DNA of 64,000 bases, taken from NCBI GenBank assembly GCA_029262175.1, contig JAJCZV010000235.1, forward strand, positions 3,014 through 67,013, given 5' to 3'. This DNA is from Gemmatimonadota bacterium. Lineage in GTDB: Bacteria; Gemmatimonadota; Gemmatimonadetes; Palauibacterales; Palauibacteraceae. This document shows positions 12,200 through 34,803 of this stretch, in pieces (position 1 is the stretch's first letter; every line of letters begins with the position of its first letter). A program made the translations under genes and the position numbers. The notes under the pieces were generated by a model, which was not told the DNA's origin, did not search any database, and worked only from the letters and a program-made list of their open reading frames with translations.

Positions 12200-12643
12200 C
12201 TAGGGGAAGATCTCGCGCAGGGCGTTTCGTCTGTACGAGAAGATCTTCTCGAGTTCACGACGAACGAATAATCGGTCTACCAGACGCCCGCCCGGGACGG
12301 CGTAGTCGACGTGATCCTCGACACGGGTGCCCCCGTCGACCGGTGTGAAGGTGTGCGTGTGAACCCACCGTCGATACGGTCCCTTTAGCTGTTCATCGAC
12401 AAAGCGGACGGACGGTTCCCAAGCCGTGATCTCGCTGCGCCAACTCATCGGCAACCCCCGCATCCGAAGCCGATAGTCGATGCGCGTGCCGACCGCCATC
12501 ACGATGGGCGTCGGCGAGGTGATCCGAAGCCGGAGCCAGGGCGGAGTCAGCGTCTCCAGGTTCTCCGCGTCGGCAAAGAACGAGAAGACTTCATCGATCG
12601 GATAGGCCAATCGTTGCTCGGTTACGAACTGTGCGCCGTTCAT
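12200..12643 (-). CDS. SRPBCC family protein (polyketide cyclase/dehydrase-like)
   Basis: A ~147 aa protein with a START/Bet v1-like pattern (YPIDEVFSFFADAENLETLTPPWL...). Transcribed divergently from the ECF sigma gene. Confidence 0.6.
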   Translation of the reverse strand: MNGAQFVTEQRLAYPIDEVFSFFADAENLETLTPPWLRLRITSPTPIVMAVGTRIDYRLRMRGLPMSWRSEITAWEPSVRFVDEQLKGPYRRWVHTHTFTPVDGGTRVEDHVDYAVPGGRLVDRLFVRRELEKIFSYRRNALREIFP

Positions 12644-12782
12644 ACCGGTGTGTTTCGTACGAACCGCCCAGGCGGATCCGTTTGAGACGGGGAGATCCGA
12701 ATAGCGCTCGCGCGCGAATACGGGATCAGAGCGAAATGCGGGGCCTCCCCACCGTGGGACTCAACGTCATATCTTCTGCCGC

Positions 12783-13367
12783 ATGCGAGATGAGAGCTTG
12801 GTCGTAAAGACCGAAGAGCGTCTTCTCGGAAGCGTCGCGCGCGGCGAACCGGGGGCAGTCAAGGCCTGCTTGGACCAATACGGGTCCTTGGTCTGGTCCT
12901 TGGCGTTGAGGAGGACCGCGTCTCGCGAGGAAGCTGAGGACGCCGTGCAAGAGATCTTCGTGGATATCTGGCGAAGTGCGGAGCGCTACGATCCGGCCAA
13001 GTCGTCCGAGGCCGGGTTCGTTGCGTTGATCGCGCGGCGACGTCTCATCGACCGCTCTCGCAAAGCCAGCCGTCGTCCGATCCTGACCCAGCTCCCCGAC
13101 GGCTTGCAAGCCGGTTCAGACGATCACGAAGCGCTCGAGCGCAGAGTCGAGGCGAGCCAGCTTCTGGAAATGGTCAATGAGTTGCCCGAGAAGCAGCGGG
13201 ACTTCATTCACCTGGCGATTGTCACCGGTCTTTCGCACACGCAGATCGCGGAGCGCACGGATACGCCCCTCGGCACGGTGAAGTCGAACATCAGACGTGG
13301 TCTGGCGGAGATCCGGCGACAGGTTACCGGGTCCGCCTCTCGAGACCAGACGGCGGGGGCATCGTGA
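12783..13367 (+). CDS. ECF (sigma-70 family) RNA polymerase sigma factor
   Basis: Region 2 (YGSLVWSLALRRTASREEAEDAVQEIFVDIW) and region 4 HTH (LPEKQRDFIHLAIVTGLSHTQIAERTDTPLGTVKSNIRRGL). Confidence 0.85.
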   Translation: MRDESLVVKTEERLLGSVARGEPGAVKACLDQYGSLVWSLALRRTASREEAEDAVQEIFVDIWRSAERYDPAKSSEAGFVALIARRRLIDRSRKASRRPILTQLPDGLQAGSDDHEALERRVEASQLLEMVNELPEKQRDFIHLAIVTGLSHTQIAERTDTPLGTVKSNIRRGLAEIRRQVTGSASRDQTAGAS

Positions 13368-14143
13368 ACGATCGACCGCTGCCGCAGCTCGAGGAGCTGC
13401 TGATCGATCGGGCAACCGGAGACCTCGATGCGGAGGGCGAGGCGCGATTCGCCGAGATGTTCGCGACGGAGCCGGGCGCCACTGATGACACCTACGAGCT
13501 GCTCGTCGCCGAGATGACTGCGGCGATGCTCGAACAGGATGGGCTCGAGTCCATGCCCGAATCTGTGGCCGCGGCGATCCTCGAAGGTGCCCAGGATCGC
13601 ACCGCGCCCGTCGATATTTCGCCCGCGACCCACCGCGCGCCACGGGCGTCTTGGCCCACGTGGTCGGGCTGGTTGCTCGCTGCAGCGGCGCTCATTGGCT
13701 GGTTGGTTTTACCCGGCCTGAGGACGCCCGCAGGCCCGCCGCCCGAACCCACGGTCGCGCAGATCAGAGACGCGCTCGTGAGTGGCGGCTCGGCGGTACA
13801 GCTCGCGTGGACCGCCACCGAGGATCCCGCCGCTGCCGGCGCTTCGGGAGAGGTGGTTTGGAGCACGGCAGAACAAGCCGGCGTCATGACGTTTTCCGGA
13901 CTCGAGGCGAATGATCCTTCGATCTCCCAGTACCAGTTATGGATCTTTGACGCGACACGCGACGATCGCTTTCCGGTCGATGGCGGTGTGTTCGATGTCG
14001 TGGCCGGTCAGGACGTATTGATCGAGATCCAGGCCAAGATCGGAGTGCGCGAACCCAGCCTGTTTGCCATCACCGTCGAGCAGCCCGGTGGGGTCGTGGT
14101 CTCGGATCGCGAGCGGATCGTCCTCGTGGCGCAGGCCGATTGA
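13364..14143 (+). CDS. Anti-sigma factor (RskA/anti-sigma-K-like, single-pass membrane)
   Basis: Its ATGA overlaps the sigma-factor stop. An N-terminal anti-sigma region and one TM helix (WSGWLLAAAALIGWLVLP) precede a periplasmic RskA-like C-terminal domain. Confidence 0.65.
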   Translation: MNDRPLPQLEELLIDRATGDLDAEGEARFAEMFATEPGATDDTYELLVAEMTAAMLEQDGLESMPESVAAAILEGAQDRTAPVDISPATHRAPRASWPTWSGWLLAAAALIGWLVLPGLRTPAGPPPEPTVAQIRDALVSGGSAVQLAWTATEDPAAAGASGEVVWSTAEQAGVMTFSGLEANDPSISQYQLWIFDATRDDRFPVDGGVFDVVAGQDVLIEIQAKIGVREPSLFAITVEQPGGVVVSDRERIVLVAQAD

Positions 14144-14544
14144 TGCTCCGATCGACGCTGCTCATGGTCGCGTTTGGGCTCTTCCCCGGAATCACCGACT
14201 CGCACCCCGCCGGGTCGACTGCACGGCCGGACCCGGAAGCATTGGTGGGGACGTGGGTGGTCGATCTTCGACCGACGCCCGACGCCGCGCCGTACCTCCA
14301 GGAGTTCGTCGTCACGTCGGTGGCGAACGGCCAACTCGAAGGAACGTTCTATGGGAGTTCGATCGAAGAAGGACGCATCAACACGGATTGGGGATTGGTC
14401 CGCTTTGCCTTCGTCACCACCGATGGGGCAGGCGTTTATCACACGTCCGGCAGGCTAGACGGGGGACGCCTCGAAGGACTCACGCATTCGCTCGGCCGCG
14501 ACTTCCTCAGTTATTGGACGGCCGAAGGGCCGGCCGCTCGGTAG
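14140..14544 (+). CDS. Small secreted protein of unknown function, co-transcribed with sigma/anti-sigma
   Basis: ATGA overlap with the anti-sigma stop. Signal peptide MMLRSTLLMVAFGLFPG. No recognisable domain. Confidence 0.45.
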   Translation: MMLRSTLLMVAFGLFPGITDSHPAGSTARPDPEALVGTWVVDLRPTPDAAPYLQEFVVTSVANGQLEGTFYGSSIEEGRINTDWGLVRFAFVTTDGAGVYHTSGRLDGGRLEGLTHSLGRDFLSYWTAEGPAAR

Positions 14545-14580
14545 GGTTCGCGAGACCTCCAAACCTCTACGATTGACCTC

Positions 14581-15093
14581 TTGACCTCACGAATCGAATC
14601 GCCGCCCCTTGGGCGGACGCTCATAGCTCTCGCCGTATGCTTGGTGGCCCCGCTCGCGGTTGGCGCGCTATCAGGGCTGGCCACTCAGGACGGCGTGCGG
14701 ACCTGGTATCAGCAAATCGTGAAGCCCGGGTTCACGCCTCCGGACTCCCTGTTCGGGCCGGTCTGGACCGCGCTCTATTTCGCCATGGGCTGTGCGGCGT
14801 TCCTGGTGTGGCGTGCCGGCAATGCTGGCGCCGACGCCCGCGGGGTCCGAGTGAGTCTCATTTGGTTCGTGATCCAATTGTTCGCGAACAGTCTGTGGTC
14901 CGTGATCTTCTTCGGGTTGCAGAACCCGGGGCTCGCGTTCGCCGAGATCCTAGTGCTGTTGGCCCTGATCGCGGTGACGACGAGAAGTTTCTGGGATCAC
15001 TCGCGCCTCGCCGCCGCGCTCATGGTGCCCTACCTGCTGTGGGTGAGCTTCGCGACCGCGCTGAATTTTTCCATTTGGCGTCTCAACGCGTGA
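14581..15093 (+). CDS. tspO: TspO/MBR family tryptophan-rich sensory protein
   Basis: Five TM helices with the conserved WYQQIVKPGFTPPDSLFGPVWTALY block and Trp-rich C-terminal helices. The start is TTG, or a nearby internal TTG/GTG. Confidence 0.8.
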   Translation: MTSRIESPPLGRTLIALAVCLVAPLAVGALSGLATQDGVRTWYQQIVKPGFTPPDSLFGPVWTALYFAMGCAAFLVWRAGNAGADARGVRVSLIWFVIQLFANSLWSVIFFGLQNPGLAFAEILVLLALIAVTTRSFWDHSRLAAALMVPYLLWVSFATALNFSIWRLNA

Positions 15094-17174: not shown

Positions 17175-17884
17175 CGGACACCGTCGGATCGGTGAACCTC
17201 GAGGCGGACAGCGACCGGACGATCGTTACGGCATCAGACGTCGTTCGCGAGTACCGCATGAGCGGCGTTCCCGTTCGCGCCCTCCGCGGCGTATCGCTCT
17301 CGGTCGCGGAGCGGGAGTTCATCGCGGTCATGGGGCCGAGCGGGTCCGGAAAGTCGACGCTGCTCCACCTGCTTGGCGGCGTGGACGTGGCGACATCTGG
17401 CAGGGTCGTTTTTCTCGGTCAGGACTTCGGGCGCATGTCCGTCGAAGCACGCGCACGACTTCGGCTTCGCAAAGTGGGACTCGTGTTTCAGCGTTTCCAT
17501 CTCCTGCCGATGTTGACCGCGCTCGAGAACGTCGAGCTCCCGATCGCAGCGCTCGGTGTCCGGCGAGCGGAGCGTCGCGACCGCGCCGCATCTTTGCTTG
17601 CGCGCGTGGGCTTGGACGACCGGCTGGGCCACCGGCCGGGAGAGCTTTCGGGAGGACAGCGACAGCGCGTCGCCATCGCACGCGCGCTGGCCAACGAGCC
17701 CGCCGTGCTGTTGGCGGACGAGCCGACCGGAGAGCTGGACCGCGCGACCTCTCACGGCGTGCTCGAGTTGTTCCAGCGGCTCAACAGCGAGGGCACCACC
17801 ATCGTCGTCGCCACCCACGACCCGGAACTGGCGGCGGGGGCAAGCCGACACGTTGAAGTCGTCGACGGCCGGATCGGATCATGA
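17171..17884 (+). CDS. ABC transporter ATP-binding protein (MacB/LolD family)
   Basis: Walker [10 protein letters not shown], signature LSGGQRQR, Walker [16 protein letters not shown] overlap with the permease stop. Confidence 0.85.
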
Positions 17885-19380
17885 TCTGGCGGCTCGTGCT
17901 GGCCTCGATTCGGCAGCGACCGGCGCGCAGCCTGCTCCTCCTCTTCGGCTATGCGCTCGGGGTCGGGGTGACGATCGCTCTGCTTTCAATCGGCGGCGCA
18001 CTCGTGACCCAGGCGCGCGATCAGACCTTGATCGGTGGCGGTGACCTCGTGGTGCTCCCGGCCGGTATCGATCTGGAGACGCTGAAGACCGGCGCCGTCA
18101 GCTCGATGTTCTTTTCGATCGAACCTGCCCCGTTCCTGTACCGCGAGGTTCTATCCGGTCCGCGGTTCGAAGATCGCGTGACGGCCGCCGCGCCCTGGAT
18201 CGACGACGAACTCCTATATCTCGAGATCGACGGCGATCTGATCCCGATCTCCGCGGGCGCGAACATCCCGAGCCTCGCGGCGGCGTTGGGCGTCGCACCT
18301 GACCTGGTCGCAGGGGACTGGAGGGACCTGCCGATCGATACTCGCTGGCGCGCCCCGACCGATGCCGAGCTCTACGCTTCCCTCGACAGGCTGCACGTTC
18401 CCGAGGGTGCGGCTGCCGGAGATTCGACCTGGGCCGAGTGGCACTATTTCAATGTGCTCCTGCCCGATGACGCCGGTTGGCTCTATCTGACCTACATGAT
18501 CGCGGGCGAAGTGCCGGACGGTCGATGGGGAGGTCGGCTTCTAGCTACGCTCGTCGAACCTGGAGTGGGGGAGCGTGCCTTCGTGTTCGAGGTCCCGGCC
18601 GACGAGGTCGTCTTCGTCGCTGGTCAGCCGGATCTTTCGATCGCCGGGTCCTCCGTCACGATTGGCTCCGACGGCGTGTACCATCTCGAGGCCCTGATTC
18701 CGAGCGAAGGAAGCGGCGACCCGCTCCGGGTGGACTTGTCGGTGGCGGCCGCTTCGCGCCGGTACTTGCCGCCGCTCGACATCGGCGGCGCGGCACTCAC
18801 ATCGGGGTACACCGTCCCAATGCTCGATGGCCGATCCACGGGCCAGATCTGCGTGGGCACGCGGTGCCGGAATCTGGAGGAGGCCGGCACGTACCACGAC
18901 CATAATTGGGGAACCTGGAGTGAGGTGACGTGGAACTGGGGGCAGGCGACGGTGGGCGAGTATTCCGTCTTGTACGGCGGGGTGGCCAAGTCCGGTCAAG
19001 CCGAGGGGGCCCACTTTCTGTACGTCGCCGACAGCGATGGGTTCGCGGGCGTGTACCCGATCCGCGCTATCCGAACCCAGTGGCGAGACGATCCCTTGAA
19101 AGCGAGCACACCGCATTCGATCTCGGTCATTGCCGGATCCGGGCGCGACTCGCTGGCGCTCGAGATCGATGTTCTTCACGCGCGGGCGACCGCGCTCCCG
19201 GCAGGGGCCGACACTTCGCCCGCGCTCTTCTATCAGATGCGCGGGCGTGCAACGCTGTCGGGGCGCCTGTCGGACACCCCAGCGAGTGGCATGGGATTGG
19301 GGTTCTTCGAGACGTGGGCGCAGGCACCCTCTTCGACGCGGGCTAGCGCCCCTCCGCCCGACCCTTCCCAGAGTCGCTGA
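17881..19380 (+). CDS. Membrane-anchored AttH/CrtC-like (hydroxyneurosporene-synthase-family lipocalin-like) protein with an FtsX-type TM1 N-terminus
   Basis: ATGA overlap with the ATPase stop. The first 45 aa (IRQRPARSLLLLFGYALGVGVTIALLSIGGA) look like a MacB/FtsX TM1. The ~450 aa soluble domain contains AEWHYFNVLL, resembling the (E)WWYF block of the CrtC/AttH family. Confidence 0.5.
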   Translation: MIWRLVLASIRQRPARSLLLLFGYALGVGVTIALLSIGGALVTQARDQTLIGGGDLVVLPAGIDLETLKTGAVSSMFFSIEPAPFLYREVLSGPRFEDRVTAAAPWIDDELLYLEIDGDLIPISAGANIPSLAAALGVAPDLVAGDWRDLPIDTRWRAPTDAELYASLDRLHVPEGAAAGDSTWAEWHYFNVLLPDDAGWLYLTYMIAGEVPDGRWGGRLLATLVEPGVGERAFVFEVPADEVVFVAGQPDLSIAGSSVTIGSDGVYHLEALIPSEGSGDPLRVDLSVAAASRRYLPPLDIGGAALTSGYTVPMLDGRSTGQICVGTRCRNLEEAGTYHDHNWGTWSEVTWNWGQATVGEYSVLYGGVAKSGQAEGAHFLYVADSDGFAGVYPIRAIRTQWRDDPLKASTPHSISVIAGSGRDSLALEIDVLHARATALPAGADTSPALFYQMRGRATLSGRLSDTPASGMGLGFFETWAQAPSSTRASAPPPDPSQSR

Positions 19381-19408
19381 CTCCGATCCACGCCTATTGA
19401 ACGCCGCT

Positions 19409-20389
19409 TCACTCGAGATGACGCTGCGTCGCCCGACCGAGTTCGGAGAGCAGGTCGCGCAGCTCGACGAGGTCATCCATATGTCGGAGCCCCGCTGCAT
19501 CCAGGGCGGAACGATAGCGCTGTGCTCCGGCCCCGCCGACGACGACGGGCACACTCGCGGGCAAACGCCCCCCGAGTCGCACCAGCTCCGCGGGCAGAGC
19601 CGGATCGTCAACGAGATGGACGATGCTCAACGCGACCAAGTCGACGGACGTCGCGCGCGCCGCGTCCGCGATATCATCGGCGGGTAGGTCGGCCCCCAAG
19701 AACGTGATGCGGCACCCCATCGCGGCTGCGGTCGTGGCGACCAATAGGGCACCGACGTCGTGATGCTGGCCCGCAGGCGTCGCGACCAGGACATGCGCGC
19801 CCCCGGACGGTTCGTCTTCCATCCTGCCGACGGCCTCCGTCAGCATGGCCCGCACGACCGCGGTCGCGGCGTGTTCTTGTGCGACAGTCAGTTGCCCGTC
19901 GGCCCAAGATTGCCCGACCTCGTTCATGAGCGGCACCACAACGCCCTCGATGAGTTCCCAGGGAGAGAGTAAGAGCATCGCGCGCCGTATCGTCGCTTTG
20001 AGGCGCGCGGTGTCCATCCCGATCACCGCTCGTCGCGACTCGGTGAGGTGGGTCTCGCAAGGGCCCCTCGATGCCGTGAGGCCGGACCCATGCTTGGGCG
20101 ATTGCGCTTCGTCCTCGCGGGTAAGCGACGCCAGCGCATCCGAGGAAAGCGCGGCCACCTGCCCGATCGTCCGTCCGGCGTCTGTAACCTGCTTGAGGAG
20201 CCGCAGCCTCTCGACGTCGGTGTCCGAATACAGGCGCCGGCCGCTCTCCGTCCGCGCCGGCTCCACGACCCGATAGCGTCGCTCCCAGGCTCGGAGCACG
20301 TCCTTGGAGAGCCCAGACCGCCGCGATGCGATCTGGATAGGGTGCCGTTTAGTCCCGTCGACCAGCGTGTTTGGCGTAGTTGAATCCAT
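19409..20389 (-). CDS. MerR-family regulator with C-terminal cobalamin (B12)-binding domain (CarH/LitR-like)
   Basis: N-terminal MerR HTH (IQIASRRSGLSKDVLRAWERRY...LYSDTDVERLRLL). The C-terminal Rossmann-like B12-binding domain has GQHHDVGALLVA (DxHxxG-type His ligand context). GGAGAC RBS. Confidence 0.75.
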   Translation of the reverse strand: MDSTTPNTLVDGTKRHPIQIASRRSGLSKDVLRAWERRYRVVEPARTESGRRLYSDTDVERLRLLKQVTDAGRTIGQVAALSSDALASLTREDEAQSPKHGSGLTASRGPCETHLTESRRAVIGMDTARLKATIRRAMLLLSPWELIEGVVVPLMNEVGQSWADGQLTVAQEHAATAVVRAMLTEAVGRMEDEPSGGAHVLVATPAGQHHDVGALLVATTAAAMGCRITFLGADLPADDIADAARATSVDLVALSIVHLVDDPALPAELVRLGGRLPASVPVVVGGAGAQRYRSALDAAGLRHMDDLVELRDLLSELGRATQRHLE

Positions 20390-20422
20390 TTCGGTCTCCC
20401 CGGCGAATCCTTGTTTTGAACC

Positions 20423-20506
20423 GAATGTACAGAGTTTGTCTACTCTCCATCAATAGAATATGTAGCATACTATTGATAAATTTCATAGACAAACCGTTTT
20501 ACATTC
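20423..20506. promoter_or_regulatory. AT-rich nested imperfect palindrome (candidate operator) in the divergent carH-like / fasciclin intergenic region
   Basis: Outer arms GAATGTACAGAGTTTGTCTA (20423-20442) and TAGACAAACCGTTTTACATTC (20486-20506). Inner perfect 8-bp IR ATCAATAG (20449-20456) / CTATTGAT (20470-20477). About 35 % GC in a ~67 % GC genome. Confidence 0.5.
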
Positions 20507-20582
20507 GACAAGACTTGGACCAACGGCTGGCCCGCGAGCGCGAGCGCGCCGGATCGGATCCAGAACTTTAAGGGGATAAAAA

Positions 20583-21098
20583 ATGAAGGTCTCAAAGCTC
20601 TTCGCACTCGCTTTGGCAGCCGGCGTCGCGGTATCGAGCCCGGTAGCCGCGCAGCACACGACAATGGCGGCGCAGCACCCGACCATGGATATCGTCGACA
20701 CGGCCGTATCCGCCGGCTCGTTTGAAACGCTCGTCGCCGCGTTGACGGCCGCCGGTCTGGTCGAGACGCTCAAGGGTGACGGTCCGTTCACCGTGTTCGC
20801 ACCCACGGACGAAGCGTTTGCGGCGCTCCCCGAGGGAACCGTTGCCAACCTGCTCAAGCCGGAGAACATCGATCAATTGGTCGCGGTGCTGACGTACCAC
20901 GTGGTTCCGGGTAAGGTTCTCAGCGCCGACGTGGTGGGCCTGTCGTCCGCGAAGACCGTTCAGGGCGAGAGCATCTCGATCGCCGTCAAGGACGGCAAGG
21001 TCATGATCGACGAGGCGCAGGTGGTCACCGCCGACATCGAGACGACCAACGGAGTCATCCACGTGATCAACCAGGTCATCCTTCCCGGGCAGAACTAA
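20583..21098 (+). CDS. Secreted fasciclin (FAS1) domain protein
   Basis: Signal peptide, then FAS1 motifs ([13 protein letters not shown]...[11 protein letters not shown]...TTNGVIHVI). Strong RBS AAGGGGA. Confidence 0.8.
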
Positions 21099-21120
21099 CC
21101 TTCCTGTCGGTTGCTTCCGC

Positions 21121-21157
21121 GGGACCCGACCGACGACGGTCGGGTCCCGTTCTTTTT
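21121..21157 (+). terminator. Rho-independent terminator after the fasciclin gene
   Basis: Stem GGGACCCGACCG / CGGTCGGGTCCC with loop ACGA, followed by GTTCTTTTT. Confidence 0.7.
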
Positions 21158-21189
21158 GCCACATCCCTACGCGTGGCTAGGGTTCGCAC

Positions 21190-21410
21190 AAGCGGCGACC
21201 CGCTCCGGGTCGACTTTTCGGTGGCGGCCGCCTCGCGCCGGTACTTGCCGCCGCTCGACATCGGCGGCGCGGCTCGATGGCCGATCCACCGGCCAGAACC
21301 CGTGCGAGTGGCATGGGATTGGGGTTCTTCGAGACGTGGGCGCAGGCACCCTCTTCGACGCAGGCTAGCGCCCCTCCGCCCGACCCTTCCCGGAATCGGT
21401 GACGCGGATC
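21190..21410 (+). repeat. Decayed partial duplicate of the 3' end of the AttH-like gene (segments of 18722-19373, collapsed)
   Basis: Three near-identical blocks: 21190-21285 matches 18712-18790; 21286-21305 matches 18820-18845; 21306-21391 matches 19276-19370. The copy has internal deletions, is not in one frame, and has no start, so it is a gene remnant. Confidence 0.7.
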
Positions 21411-21610
21411 AACACCTTCTGGATATGGATCGAAGAACGCTTGATCAAGCAGGTATTGGGTCTCGAATTCAAAACCGGAGCGATACTCGCGAACCACTTC
21501 CGCGAACGGACGCTTTGCGGTTCGCCACGATCGGGCCGAGGAGTCTGAAGTGCTTCTCGCTGTTTGGAGGGGTTGTCCATCACGGACGTGGATGATACCC
21601 TAAGGTTTCA

Positions 21611-21630
21611 TTATGTGTAGTATACTACTC
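21611..21630. promoter_or_regulatory. Perfect 12-bp palindrome GTAGTATACTAC in the AT-rich promoter region of the esterase gene
   Basis: The palindrome (21617-21628) sits ~45 bp upstream of the 21672 start. It shares TGTAG(C/T)ATACTA with 20461-20472 in the carH/fasciclin operator region. Confidence 0.45.
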
Positions 21631-21671
21631 GTAACGACACCTATAGCTCTCGACTAGAGTAGAGGTCATTC

Positions 21672-22844
21672 ATGAAGGAGTTCACGCTCAGGCTTGCGGC
21701 AACAACGCTCCTATTGGTTGGGGGACCGACTGCGGCATTGCAGGCTCAGGAGGGTCGCCAACATACGTTTTCGTCAGGGGTTCTGGGTGAGGAGAGATCA
21801 CTCACCGTCCACCTCCCGAGCTCTTACGACGAGCAGGGCGGCTACGCCTACCCGGTCCTCTATTTGTTGGACGGACATGCGAACGCCGGCTATGCACTCA
21901 CGGTCTCCGAGTTCTTGGCTGAGAGTGGCGTGGCCCCCGAACTGATCACCGTCGCGATACCGGCCGGGCCGACGCGCGGCCGCGACTATCTGCCACCGAA
22001 CCCGAGTGGCGACGCGAACTCGTCAGGTGAGGCGGATCGATTTCTAGATCATCTCGAGAAGGAGATCATCCCTTTCGTTGAATCCAACTACCGAGCGGCA
22101 CCTTTTCGGTTGGTTTCTGGCCACTCACTGGGCGGCGTCTTCGTGACCCACGCCATGATCACGCGCCCAGGACTCTTCCGCGTCCACCTTGCTCAGAGCC
22201 CCTATCTCATCGAGGCAATCGCTGCGCCTCTGCTCGAGCGCGTCGCGATGTCGCTCGGAGATCGCGCGGGCAGCTCCTTTTACTACATGAACCTCGGCGA
22301 GGAGCCGAACCTGTCAGAGAACTACGACCGGCTTCGCTCGCTACTCGCCACCCGAGCTCCTGGAGGCTTCGAGTGGGCAAGCGACCGTGAAGACGGCGTG
22401 GGCCATATGGGCACCCGCTTGATCGGTCACTATGCCGGCCTCAAGGGATTCTTCGCCGACCGATGGACGCTTCCTACCGCGACGTTGGAGAAAGATGGGG
22501 GCGACGCACTGGCCGCCTATGTCGACCGCCTCAACGCGGATTTTGGTTATCCGGTTCTGATCGGCGAGTCTTCCCTCCAACAGGCGACCCAGTTGTTCTT
22601 TTCCAAGCAAGACATAGCTGCGGCGGGAAGCTCCGCCGAACTCTACGCCAAATACTATCCGCGTTCCCCAATCGCGCACTTCCTTCGGGCAAATGCTCTG
22701 GCTGCTGGTGGTGCAAGAGAAGAGGCGCTCGAAGCGGTCGCGGCAGCAATTTCTTTGTACGAAGCAGAGCCAGATGAAAGCCTTGCGCCGCTCTACCAAG
22801 GGATGAAGCAACTTCGGGCAGGACTAGGCGGAGGTGATCGGTGA
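21672..22844 (+). CDS. Secreted alpha/beta-hydrolase, esterase family (enterochelin-esterase-like) with C-terminal helical/TPR-like tail
   Basis: Signal peptide, then the GHSLGG nucleophile elbow and an esterase-D-like layout (YPVLYLLDG...). Confidence 0.7.
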   Translation: MKEFTLRLAATTLLLVGGPTAALQAQEGRQHTFSSGVLGEERSLTVHLPSSYDEQGGYAYPVLYLLDGHANAGYALTVSEFLAESGVAPELITVAIPAGPTRGRDYLPPNPSGDANSSGEADRFLDHLEKEIIPFVESNYRAAPFRLVSGHSLGGVFVTHAMITRPGLFRVHLAQSPYLIEAIAAPLLERVAMSLGDRAGSSFYYMNLGEEPNLSENYDRLRSLLATRAPGGFEWASDREDGVGHMGTRLIGHYAGLKGFFADRWTLPTATLEKDGGDALAAYVDRLNADFGYPVLIGESSLQQATQLFFSKQDIAAAGSSAELYAKYYPRSPIAHFLRANALAAGGAREEALEAVAAAISLYEAEPDESLAPLYQGMKQLRAGLGGGDR

Positions 22845-34558: not shown

Positions 34559-34738
34559 CTAAAAGTCGCTCGCGCGAACGGTCTTGCGGCCGTTGGCCGT
34601 GCAGCGCTTCTGAGCATCTTTGATAAGAGCGTGGACATTATTGTTGAGAGCGTCGAGTGCGTCGCCGCTCACGTTGAGGCCCGTCGACTTGAGGGCATCC
34701 TTGGTTTTGGATCCTACCAGAAGCATTTCTTTGGCCAT
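34559..34738 (-). CDS. 59-aa singlet histone-fold protein (bacterial histone HBb / DUF1931-like), absent from the ORF track
   Basis: Translation: MAKEMLLVGSKTKDALKSTGLNVSGDALDALNNNVHALIKDAQKRCTANGRKTVRASDF. The C-terminal ...A..GRKTV...D is the histone-fold alpha3/L2 signature shared with archaeal histones and Bdellovibrio Bd0055-type bacterial histones. GGAG RBS 8 nt upstream. Its own terminator follows. Confidence 0.6.
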   Translation of the reverse strand: MAKEMLLVGSKTKDALKSTGLNVSGDALDALNNNVHALIKDAQKRCTANGRKTVRASDF

Positions 34739-34803
34739 TGAGGCGCTCCAAATTGGCGTGGAACAGCATTACAGGTTCACGGAAGCTAACCCCAACCATG
34801 GGA

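Follow-up and report, generated by a model that had tools for sequence, protein, structure and literature searches.

A predicted bidirectional promoter-operator between a CarH/LitR-type B12 photoreceptor gene and a divergent fasciclin gene in Gemmatimonadota

What kind of element separates a carH-like regulator gene from the fasciclin gene that diverges from it in a Gemmatimonadota bacterium? The question is raised by positions 20390-20582 of a 64 kb stretch of contig DNA (the window, that is, the whole stretch analysed), a 193-bp spacer separating the open reading frame (ORF) 19409-20389 (-) from ORF 20583-21098 (+). A sequence-only reading had described it as an AT-rich operator made of nested palindrome arms, at which a B12-dependent regulator would control its own gene and, in response to light, the fasciclin gene. 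We consider it likely that the spacer serves a CarH/LitR-type B12 photoreceptor module as a bidirectional promoter-operator for carH and the fasciclin gene. Its functional units, as judged from the hexamer pattern, are probably 11-bp-phased TnnACA/TnGACA hexamers in two opposed arrays and not the arms of a nested palindrome. The features are listed in Table 1.

The palindrome itself was examined by repeat searching and folding. Three inverted repeats were located where the sequence-only reading had placed an 84-bp imperfect palindrome with nested repeats, and the distances that it gave to the carH start (34-117 bp) and to the fasciclin start (77-160 bp) were both correct. The repeats are roughly concentric, with centres 0.5-1.5 bp apart, and the dyad is therefore imperfect, with small indels. 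Folded as single-stranded DNA, 20415-20515 reached -15.8 kcal/mol, compared with -5.7 +/- 2.1 kcal/mol for 200 dinucleotide shuffles (z = -4.8), none of which folded as well. A motif search had also been proposed; run across the 64 kb window, it found ATCAATAG-N5-20-CTATTGAT once, with 0.00 occurrences expected, and no second occurrence of the exact outer-arm words. The dyad is far beyond chance. The base composition had to be corrected: the spacer measured 46% GC and not about 35%, such AT-richness being found only in the 84-bp palindrome (31%) and in a 109-bp core at 20414-20522 (34%), and the window measured 63.5% and not about 67%. A 1,953-bp contig (L095), assembled independently from another public read set, was 100% identical over 19310-21262, which demonstrates that the spacer sequence is not an assembly artefact.

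CarH and LitR proteins are known from work on Thermus, Bacillus, Streptomyces and myxobacteria, nearly always as switches of carotenoid genes, and also serve as optogenetic parts. The regulator encoded beside the spacer matched the Pfam families MerR_1 (E = 4e-15), MerR (E = 6e-9), B12-binding_2 and B12-binding above cutoff, and its closest solved structures were those of Thermus thermophilus LitR/CarH (TtCarH; 3WHP and 5C8D-F, E about 1e-29). Both the Wx9EH signature (SWADGQLTVAQEH; W162-x9-E172-H173) and the His loop QHHDVG (H210-x-x-G213, with the axial His) were present. An alignment with 15 relatives showed W162, E172, H210 and G213 to be invariant, as was, among the aligned relatives, the LRxWERRY helix common to the regulator and TtCarH. 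The best NCBIfam match was TransRegCarH, which covered the full length at 133 bits and did not reach the equivalog cutoff of 400 bits. On these signatures, the protein is a predicted class-I CarH/LitR-type B12 photoreceptor, a distant member and not an equivalog of the characterised proteins. Directly after the signature Trp, residue 163 is Ala here (SWADG) and His in TtCarH (AWHRG), and none of the 15 aligned relatives has His at this position. In TtCarH, this His is the upper-axial ligand that forms the bis-His adduct of the light state. The photoproduct state of this CarH clade may differ from that of TtCarH.

Published CarH operators comprise three or four tandem 11-bp nnnnTnnACAn repeats that overlap a -35 or -10 box; they can include pseudo-repeats and can govern divergent promoters (PMC9304148). 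The spacer carries at least two such tandem repeats. On the carH side, TAGACA-N5-TGTACA at 20442-20426 (-) was the only exact TnnACA-N5-TnnACA in the window (0.25 expected), and the repeat adjoining it in the array is a one-mismatch match. The repeats would overlap the -35 and -10 boxes of promoters placed by position (carH TTGATG-N18-TACATT); a consensus scan calls none. A single orientation of three or four repeats was not observed for the spacer as a whole, since the window and the whole family carry opposed pairs; the carH-side array alone, with its four phased repeats, does fit such an orientation.

The repeat pairs of the window were then ranked with a weight matrix derived from related loci, and three of the four best pairs fell in the spacer. 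The fasciclin-side pair TAGACA/TTTACA had the second-best score (16.5 bits) and mirrors the carH-side pair, which had the third-best. Site 1 adjoins the fasciclin gene and lies outside the palindrome described earlier. The best pair or triple outside the spacer (34616-34650) lies on the minus strand inside a coding ORF and was attributed to chance. The ORF concerned (34560-34741, -; about 59 aa by eye, MAKEMLLVGSKTKDALKSTGLNVSGDALDALNNNVHALIKDAQKRCTANGRKTVRASDF) holds the top-scoring CarH-like repeat pair/triple of the window. Matches at 12302-12374, inside an SRPBCC gene, were likewise judged to be chance.

Context look-ups and one metagenome scan yielded 94 related carH loci, mostly from Gemmatimonadota. 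The nearest genomes with a homologue of the regulator were Gemmatimonadota metagenome-assembled genomes at 42-46% identity, and a large protein collection contained nothing closer than 61% except the window's own protein. A fasciclin gene was divergent from carH in 22 of the 60 loci with enough flank, and in every relative of at least 54% identity whose upstream flank was recovered. Among the other products encoded next to carH were RudS (2-thiouracil desulfurase + DUF1722), DUF1295, NAD-binding/DUF2867 proteins and a weak photolyase-like protein. LitR-controlled operons are known to include RudS, and such genes are typical of the light response (PMC11417400). In a 54%-identical relative, a 488-aa gene follows carH on the same strand (L010 1658-3124; L011 1224-2690), for which Pfam gave nothing beyond a sub-threshold photolyase FAD-binding domain (19.8 bits, cutoff 27). 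The L010 gene was compared with the window's 499-aa ORF, upstream of carH, as a possible counterpart, and the two proved unrelated.

The carH upstream regions of the family presented TGTCnA/TnGACA hexamers spaced 11 bp apart, with the G of TnGACA at 93%. The strict TnnACA-N5-TnnACA pair was found in 47 of 74 unique 200-bp carH upstream regions and in 0 of 287 carH coding control pieces. Both the hexamer and its phasing match the experimentally defined CarH repeat nnnnTnnACAn. At loci with a divergent fasciclin gene, the layout does not vary: the operator has a leftward pair (site 1), a second leftward pair (site 2 left), a rightward pair (site 2 right) and a TAnnnT box at the offsets given in Table 1. 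The predicted carH promoter of the family is formed by TTGACr at offset 69, a 17-nt spacer and the box at 92 (TATCCT, TATTCT, TATGTT and similar), while the predicted fasciclin promoter is formed by TTGACA, the reverse complement of the offset-42 hexamer, followed after 17-18 nt by a TAnnnT box on the other strand. The fasciclin-side boxes in relatives read TACTGT, TATTGT, CATAAT or TAGAAT, and site 1 lies directly downstream of this -10 box, at the start region.

The back-to-back element TGTCAA-N20/21-TTGACr occurred at 37 distinct sites in the related loci. In L020 (position 5021), an unlinked fasciclin gene has the same three-part site in front of it, including a downstream pair TCGACA-N5-TAGACC; in L059 (position 1555), a fasciclin gene has a back-to-back site about 400 bp upstream. 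Further copies were located between divergent RudS and flavin amine-oxidase genes (L017, 4509), adjoining RudS (L079, 4479) and in L056 at 4486. In several of the copies away from carH, the -35 box falls within a repeat, the -10 box is TATATA-like, and a repeat pair follows at the start site.

The window was compared with this family layout by alignment and by a positional test. MAFFT placed the window hexamers under the family columns with only 4 gap columns, and the carH-side array aligned with the family TTGACr (69) and TrGACA (80). A positional block test, which replaced the nhmmer profile, allowed shifts of up to 2 nt and drew its shuffles from the same AT-rich segment; the window scored 17.4 bits against -12.6 +/- 7.7, with shifts of at most 1 nt, and 3 of 20,000 shuffles reached this score. 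By sequence, the window belongs to the conserved, predicted carH-fasciclin regulatory layout of Gemmatimonadota (sites 1, 2 left, 2 right and the -10 box). Given the repeats and the layout conserved in related loci, autoregulation together with light control of the fasciclin gene is the best-supported reading, and this part of the sequence-only reading stands, as does its CarH-like regulator with the class-I domains and signature residues. Its nested-palindrome anatomy is better described as mirrored direct-repeat arrays.

Table 1. Features of the carH-fasciclin spacer and its flanking genes, by window position, and of the family layout, by offset
Feature	Position	Strand or direction	Remarks
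carH/litR-type regulator gene	19409-20389	-	326 aa; MerR-type helix-turn-helix, B12-binding_2 four-helix bundle and B12-binding Rossmann domain
carH-side array	20415-20453	-	four hexamers, exact 11-bp phasing; pseudo-repeat, repeat, repeat, pseudo-repeat
TTGATG	20453-20448	-	pseudo-repeat and putative -35 box
TAGACA	20442-20437	-	full repeat, family offset 80
TGTACA	20431-20426	-	full repeat; overlaps inferred carH -10 box TACATT
TTCAAA	20420-20415	-	pseudo-repeat
Inferred carH -10 box TACATT	20424-20429	-	18-nt spacer from TTGATG; offset 92 as in relatives
Whole imperfect dyad	20422-20507		86 bp; 31% GC over 20423-20506
Outer inverted repeat CGAATGTA	20422-20429 and 20500-20507		repeat finder
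Middle inverted repeat GTTTGTCTA	20434-20442 and 20486-20494		repeat finder
Inner inverted repeat ATCAATAGAAT/ATACTATTGAT (ATCAATAG + AAT)	20449-20459 and 20467-20477		repeat finder
Inner inverted repeat ATCAATAG-N13-CTATTGAT	20449-20477		holds two back-to-back -35-like hexamers
Fasciclin-side pair	20486-20503	+	TAGACA (20486-20491) and TTTACA (20498-20503), 12 bp apart; right outer arm of palindrome
Site 1, TCGACA-N5-TGGACC	20505-20521	+	11-bp spacing; one-mismatch TnnACA-N5-TnnACA; 13.8 bits as pair
Fasciclin leader	20523-20582	+	GC-rich (62%); Shine-Dalgarno-like AAGGGG 7 nt before ATG
Fasciclin (FAS1) gene	20583-21098	+	171 aa; single FAS1 domain, signal-peptide-like N-terminus; Pfam Fasciclin E = 3e-41
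Family site 1	offsets 0 and 11	leftward pair, carH direction	loci with divergent fasciclin
Family site 2 left	offsets 42 and 53	leftward pair	loci with divergent fasciclin
Family site 2 right	offsets 69 and 80	rightward pair	loci with divergent fasciclin
Family TAnnnT box	offset 92		loci with divergent fasciclin
Window GGTCCA	offset 0	carH direction	anchored on site 1
Window TGTCGA	offset 11	carH direction	anchored on site 1
Window TATCAA	offset 43	carH direction	anchored on site 1
Window TGCTAC	offset 54	carH direction	anchored on site 1
Window TTGATG	offset 68	carH direction	anchored on site 1
Window TAGACA	offset 79	carH direction	anchored on site 1
Window TACATT	offset 92	carH direction	anchored on site 1

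The inner inverted repeat takes on a different role under this layout. It holds TTGATG facing carH (-) and TTGATA (20473-20478) facing the fasciclin gene (+), and the back-to-back element that reads TGTCAA-N21-TTGACr in relatives reads TATCAA-N19-TTGATG in the window. The repeat aligns with two back-to-back -35-type hexamers and is, on this alignment, unlikely to be the primary operator unit. Both inner hexamers have changed from GAC to GAT, by which the match to the CarH half-site is lost and the -35 look (TTGATA, TTGATG) is kept. The left outer arm holds TAGACA and TGTACA, and both outer arms are pairs of CarH-type repeats. The palindromic look would arise from two mirrored direct-repeat arrays together with back-to-back -35 boxes, and not from a classical symmetric operator.

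That the nested palindrome is itself the recognition unit, with CarH dimers or a tetramer on the inner repeat ATCAATAG/CTATTGAT and the outer arms as auxiliary half-sites, appears improbable to us. In its favour, the inner repeat occurs once in the window and runs over 8 bp without a mismatch, the dyad as a whole is far from random, and the same GAC-to-GAT change in both arms relative to the family consensus would mean that symmetry was maintained; the Myxococcus xanthus CarA/CarH operator was also first described as palindromes (PMC9304148). However, the changed inner hexamers are without the ACA that defines the CarH/LitR half-site, and they score only 4-5 bits with the family matrix, where the outer TAGACA/TCGACA reach 10-12 bits. 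The arms fall on the positions of the -35 boxes in relatives, which alone explains a back-to-back inverted repeat, and their exact words are conserved in no relative, with 2 stray matches in 423 kb.

The centre of the dyad raised the question of a second regulator, which would bind there (ATGTAGCATACTAT, 20460-20473; motif TGTAGYATACTA) and also upstream of the esterase gene (GTGTAGTATACTAC, 21615-21628). The 12-mer TGTAGCATACTA recurs with one mismatch 1.15 kb away (21616-21627) in another AT-rich upstream region, this second copy being the perfect 12-bp palindrome GTAGTATACTAC, and no shuffle of the whole window yielded three matches at <=2 mismatches. The best local alignment of the two AT-rich regions, however, scored 20, where mononucleotide shuffles of the second region gave 17.5 +/- 2.4 with a maximum of 31, and is therefore within noise. 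None of the 94 related loci contains the motif, or a homologue of either the esterase or the 499-aa ORF upstream of carH, and no candidate regulator was identified. The 12-mer, lying within the noise of local composition and absent from relatives, was rejected as evidence, and we regard a second regulator as very unlikely.

The palindrome could also have no regulatory role and be the scar or structural by-product of a cassette insertion, such as an inverted duplication, a relic like a miniature inverted-repeat transposable element (MITE) or a cruciform-prone spacer. Direct repeats of 84 bp and 120 bp, at 92-96% identity, flank the cassette and suggest an insertion, no fasciclin -10 box is recognisable, and relatives carry no equivalents of the outer-arm repeats at these offsets. 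This holds for the fasciclin-side pair TAGACA/TTTACA, and the right outer arm looks like a lineage-specific gain that mirrors the left. Against a scar, the window contains no further copy of any arm, the spacer is collinear with the regulatory region of the relatives, and the arms are alike only in the hexamer-bearing segments and not between them, which fits selection on binding sites and not a recent duplication. Given the lack of other copies and the collinearity, a mobile-element or MITE origin was rejected, and a non-regulatory palindrome seems hardly credible.

Several results weigh against a bidirectional CarH-type promoter-operator. Identity between the regulator and the relatives used is only 42-61%, and its score falls below the NCBIfam CarH equivalog cutoff. 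Three of the six window hexamers are degenerate, with ACA changed to ATA or ATG at offsets 43 and 68 and with TGCTAC at 54, and single hexamers such as TCGACA are frequent in this GC-rich DNA. The family nhmmer profile recovered only site 1 as its top match in the window (E = 0.35, not significant), so that for the central part homology is based on position and on the block test. A sigma-70 and terminator consensus scan of 20250-20750 returned no promoter on either strand and no terminator, the carH TTGATG-N18-TACATT having 8 of 12 matches at a threshold of 9; the promoters are therefore placed by position from the relatives. The model is weakest at the fasciclin promoter. On that side, no TAnnnT -10 box lies 16-19 nt from TTGATA, TACATT at 20500-20505 would need a 21-nt spacer to serve as the -10 box, the alternative promoter TAGACA-N18-AAGACT is weak, and the hexamer spacing is irregular (13, 12, 7 and 11 bp).

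With these points taken into account, the bidirectional promoter-operator can be put as a switch whose promoter positions, CarH binding, oligomeric state and light response are putative and drawn from the signatures of the family and the anatomy of the operator. In the dark, CarH oligomers carrying adenosylcobalamin would sit on the arrays of 11-bp-phased TnnACA hexamers. The carH-facing array TTGATG, TAGACA, TGTACA, TTCAAA (20453-20415) would cover the carH -35 box, spacer and -10 box, and the fasciclin-facing set TTGATA, TAGACA, TTTACA, TCGACA-N5-TGGACC (20473-20521) would cover the fasciclin promoter and start region, so that both genes would be off while CarH is bound. Light would cleave the Co-C bond, the oligomer would fall apart, and both promoters would be freed. 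The fasciclin gene is thus the predicted light-derepressed target.

The bacterial function of the fasciclin-domain family is largely unknown. The closest single-domain solved structure to the window protein was 1W7D (E = 3.5e-44; entry name beta-Ig-H3/fasciclin), the R. sphaeroides Fdp protein, and the AstaP structure 8C18 matched at E = 4e-15. Divergent fasciclins at related carH loci share 65-80% identity with the window fasciclin, which across these loci is much better conserved than the regulator (42-61%). A 21-nt in-frame tandem duplication (86% identical) is present at 20646-20687, just past the signal peptide. An Rfam scan of 20300-21750 at E <= 1 returned only a chance small-RNA match (E = 0.86), and the fasciclin 5' region was judged to hold neither a riboswitch nor any known leader RNA.

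A wider proposal, which as a whole we find unlikely, makes the secreted fasciclin a dedicated photoprotective effector of the B12 photoreceptor regulon in Gemmatimonadota, perhaps an envelope pigment binder, and adds clamping of the arrays by one or two CarH oligomers and operator turnover. As effector, it might be a periplasmic or outer-envelope binder of carotenoids or other lipophilic pigments, like algal AstaP; a photoprotective role is reasonable but speculative. For the geometry, mirrored arrays at fixed helical offsets would let one or two cooperating CarH oligomers clamp both divergent promoters, a binding geometry that to our knowledge has not been described for CarH. For the turnover, the inner repeats would have decayed symmetrically to plain -35 boxes, with new repeats arising one or two helical turns outward on both sides.

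AstaP is a carotenoid-binding FAS1 protein of green algae that is expressed under photo-oxidative conditions, and a cyanobacterial FAS1 homologue did not bind carotenoids (PMC10147662). The window protein resembles AstaP as a secreted single-FAS1-domain protein and differs in being far closer to generic bacterial FAS1 (1W7D). Carotenoid binding by the window fasciclin would be pure speculation. Light-induced fasciclin genes were reported in a Mycobacterium kansasii transcriptome (PMC9861118).

The predicted promoter-operator was also compared with characterised light-responsive operators. With T. thermophilus CarH (LitR; carH/crtB divergent region) and Bacillus megaterium CarH it shares the regulator's domain architecture and B12 signature residues, the 11-bp-phased TnnACA repeats over -35/-10 boxes, here predicted ones, and a regulator gene divergent from its target, here a putative one (PMC9304148). 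Unlike these systems, in which repeats of a single orientation bind one tetramer, the window and the Gemmatimonadota family have pairs in both orientations with a third pair 42 bp away, and the target is a fasciclin gene and not carotenoid genes. Among myxobacterial operators (Cystobacter, Sorangium, Haliangium), the window array resembles the two repeats and two pseudo-repeats of H. ochraceum; it differs in its phylum, in the more specific TnGACA hexamer, in having opposed arrays at fixed 27-bp and 42-bp offsets and in having no carotenoid genes adjoining the operator.

Class II LitR of Pseudomonas (PplR1/PmlR2) recognises TGTACA-N12-TGTACA over the -35 box and between the start site and the start codon (PMC9758184). 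This two-site layout matches the fasciclin side of the family, and RudS/photolyase-type genes likewise occur in the class II regulon (PMC11417400). In contrast, the hexamer spacing is N12 there and N5 here, and class II proteins lack the Rossmann B12-binding domain and depend on a LOV partner; since both B12 domains are present in the window protein, it is class I.

What is new here is the phylum, the two-orientation three-site geometry, the symmetric remodelling in the window and the fasciclin target, while the CarH/LitR operator itself is of a known kind. A search of the available literature found no paper linking Gemmatimonadota, CarH/LitR and fasciclin. The results provide a testable operator model for a whole phylum rich in uncultured members, and the conserved geometry could inform how CarH oligomers engage DNA. 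A bacterial fasciclin-domain protein would further be tied to a light regulon, which extends and does not overturn current understanding.

Regarding the surroundings, direct repeats at 18711-18794/21190-21273 and 19276-19395/21298-21417 (96% and 92% identity) bracket the carH-fasciclin cassette (about 19396-21189), and downstream of the fasciclin gene the 3' end of the 499-aa ORF 17881-19380 is present again as a decayed copy that lacks 481 bp internally. This arrangement suggests a Campbell-type (single-crossover) insertion of the cassette. Both bracketing repeats contain an end of the independent contig L095, as expected of real repeats.

Located 5 kb from carH, a cluster at 12200-15093 comprises an SRPBCC/polyketide-cyclase-like gene, genes for an extracytoplasmic function (ECF) sigma factor, for an RskA-type anti-sigma factor and for TspO, and a small unknown ORF. 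In Streptomyces and Myxococcus, LitR/CarH pathways work together with ECF sigma factors. Neither the DNA upstream of the ECF sigma/anti-sigma/TspO cluster nor the 15.1-16.0 kb stretch showed any CarH-type repeat. The tspO gene of M. kansasii is light-induced (PMC9861118). On the other side of the cassette, the region upstream of the esterase gene (21672 +) presented at 21573-21601 a promoter-like pair TTGTCC-N17-TACCCT with one CarH-type hexamer (TTGTCCA).

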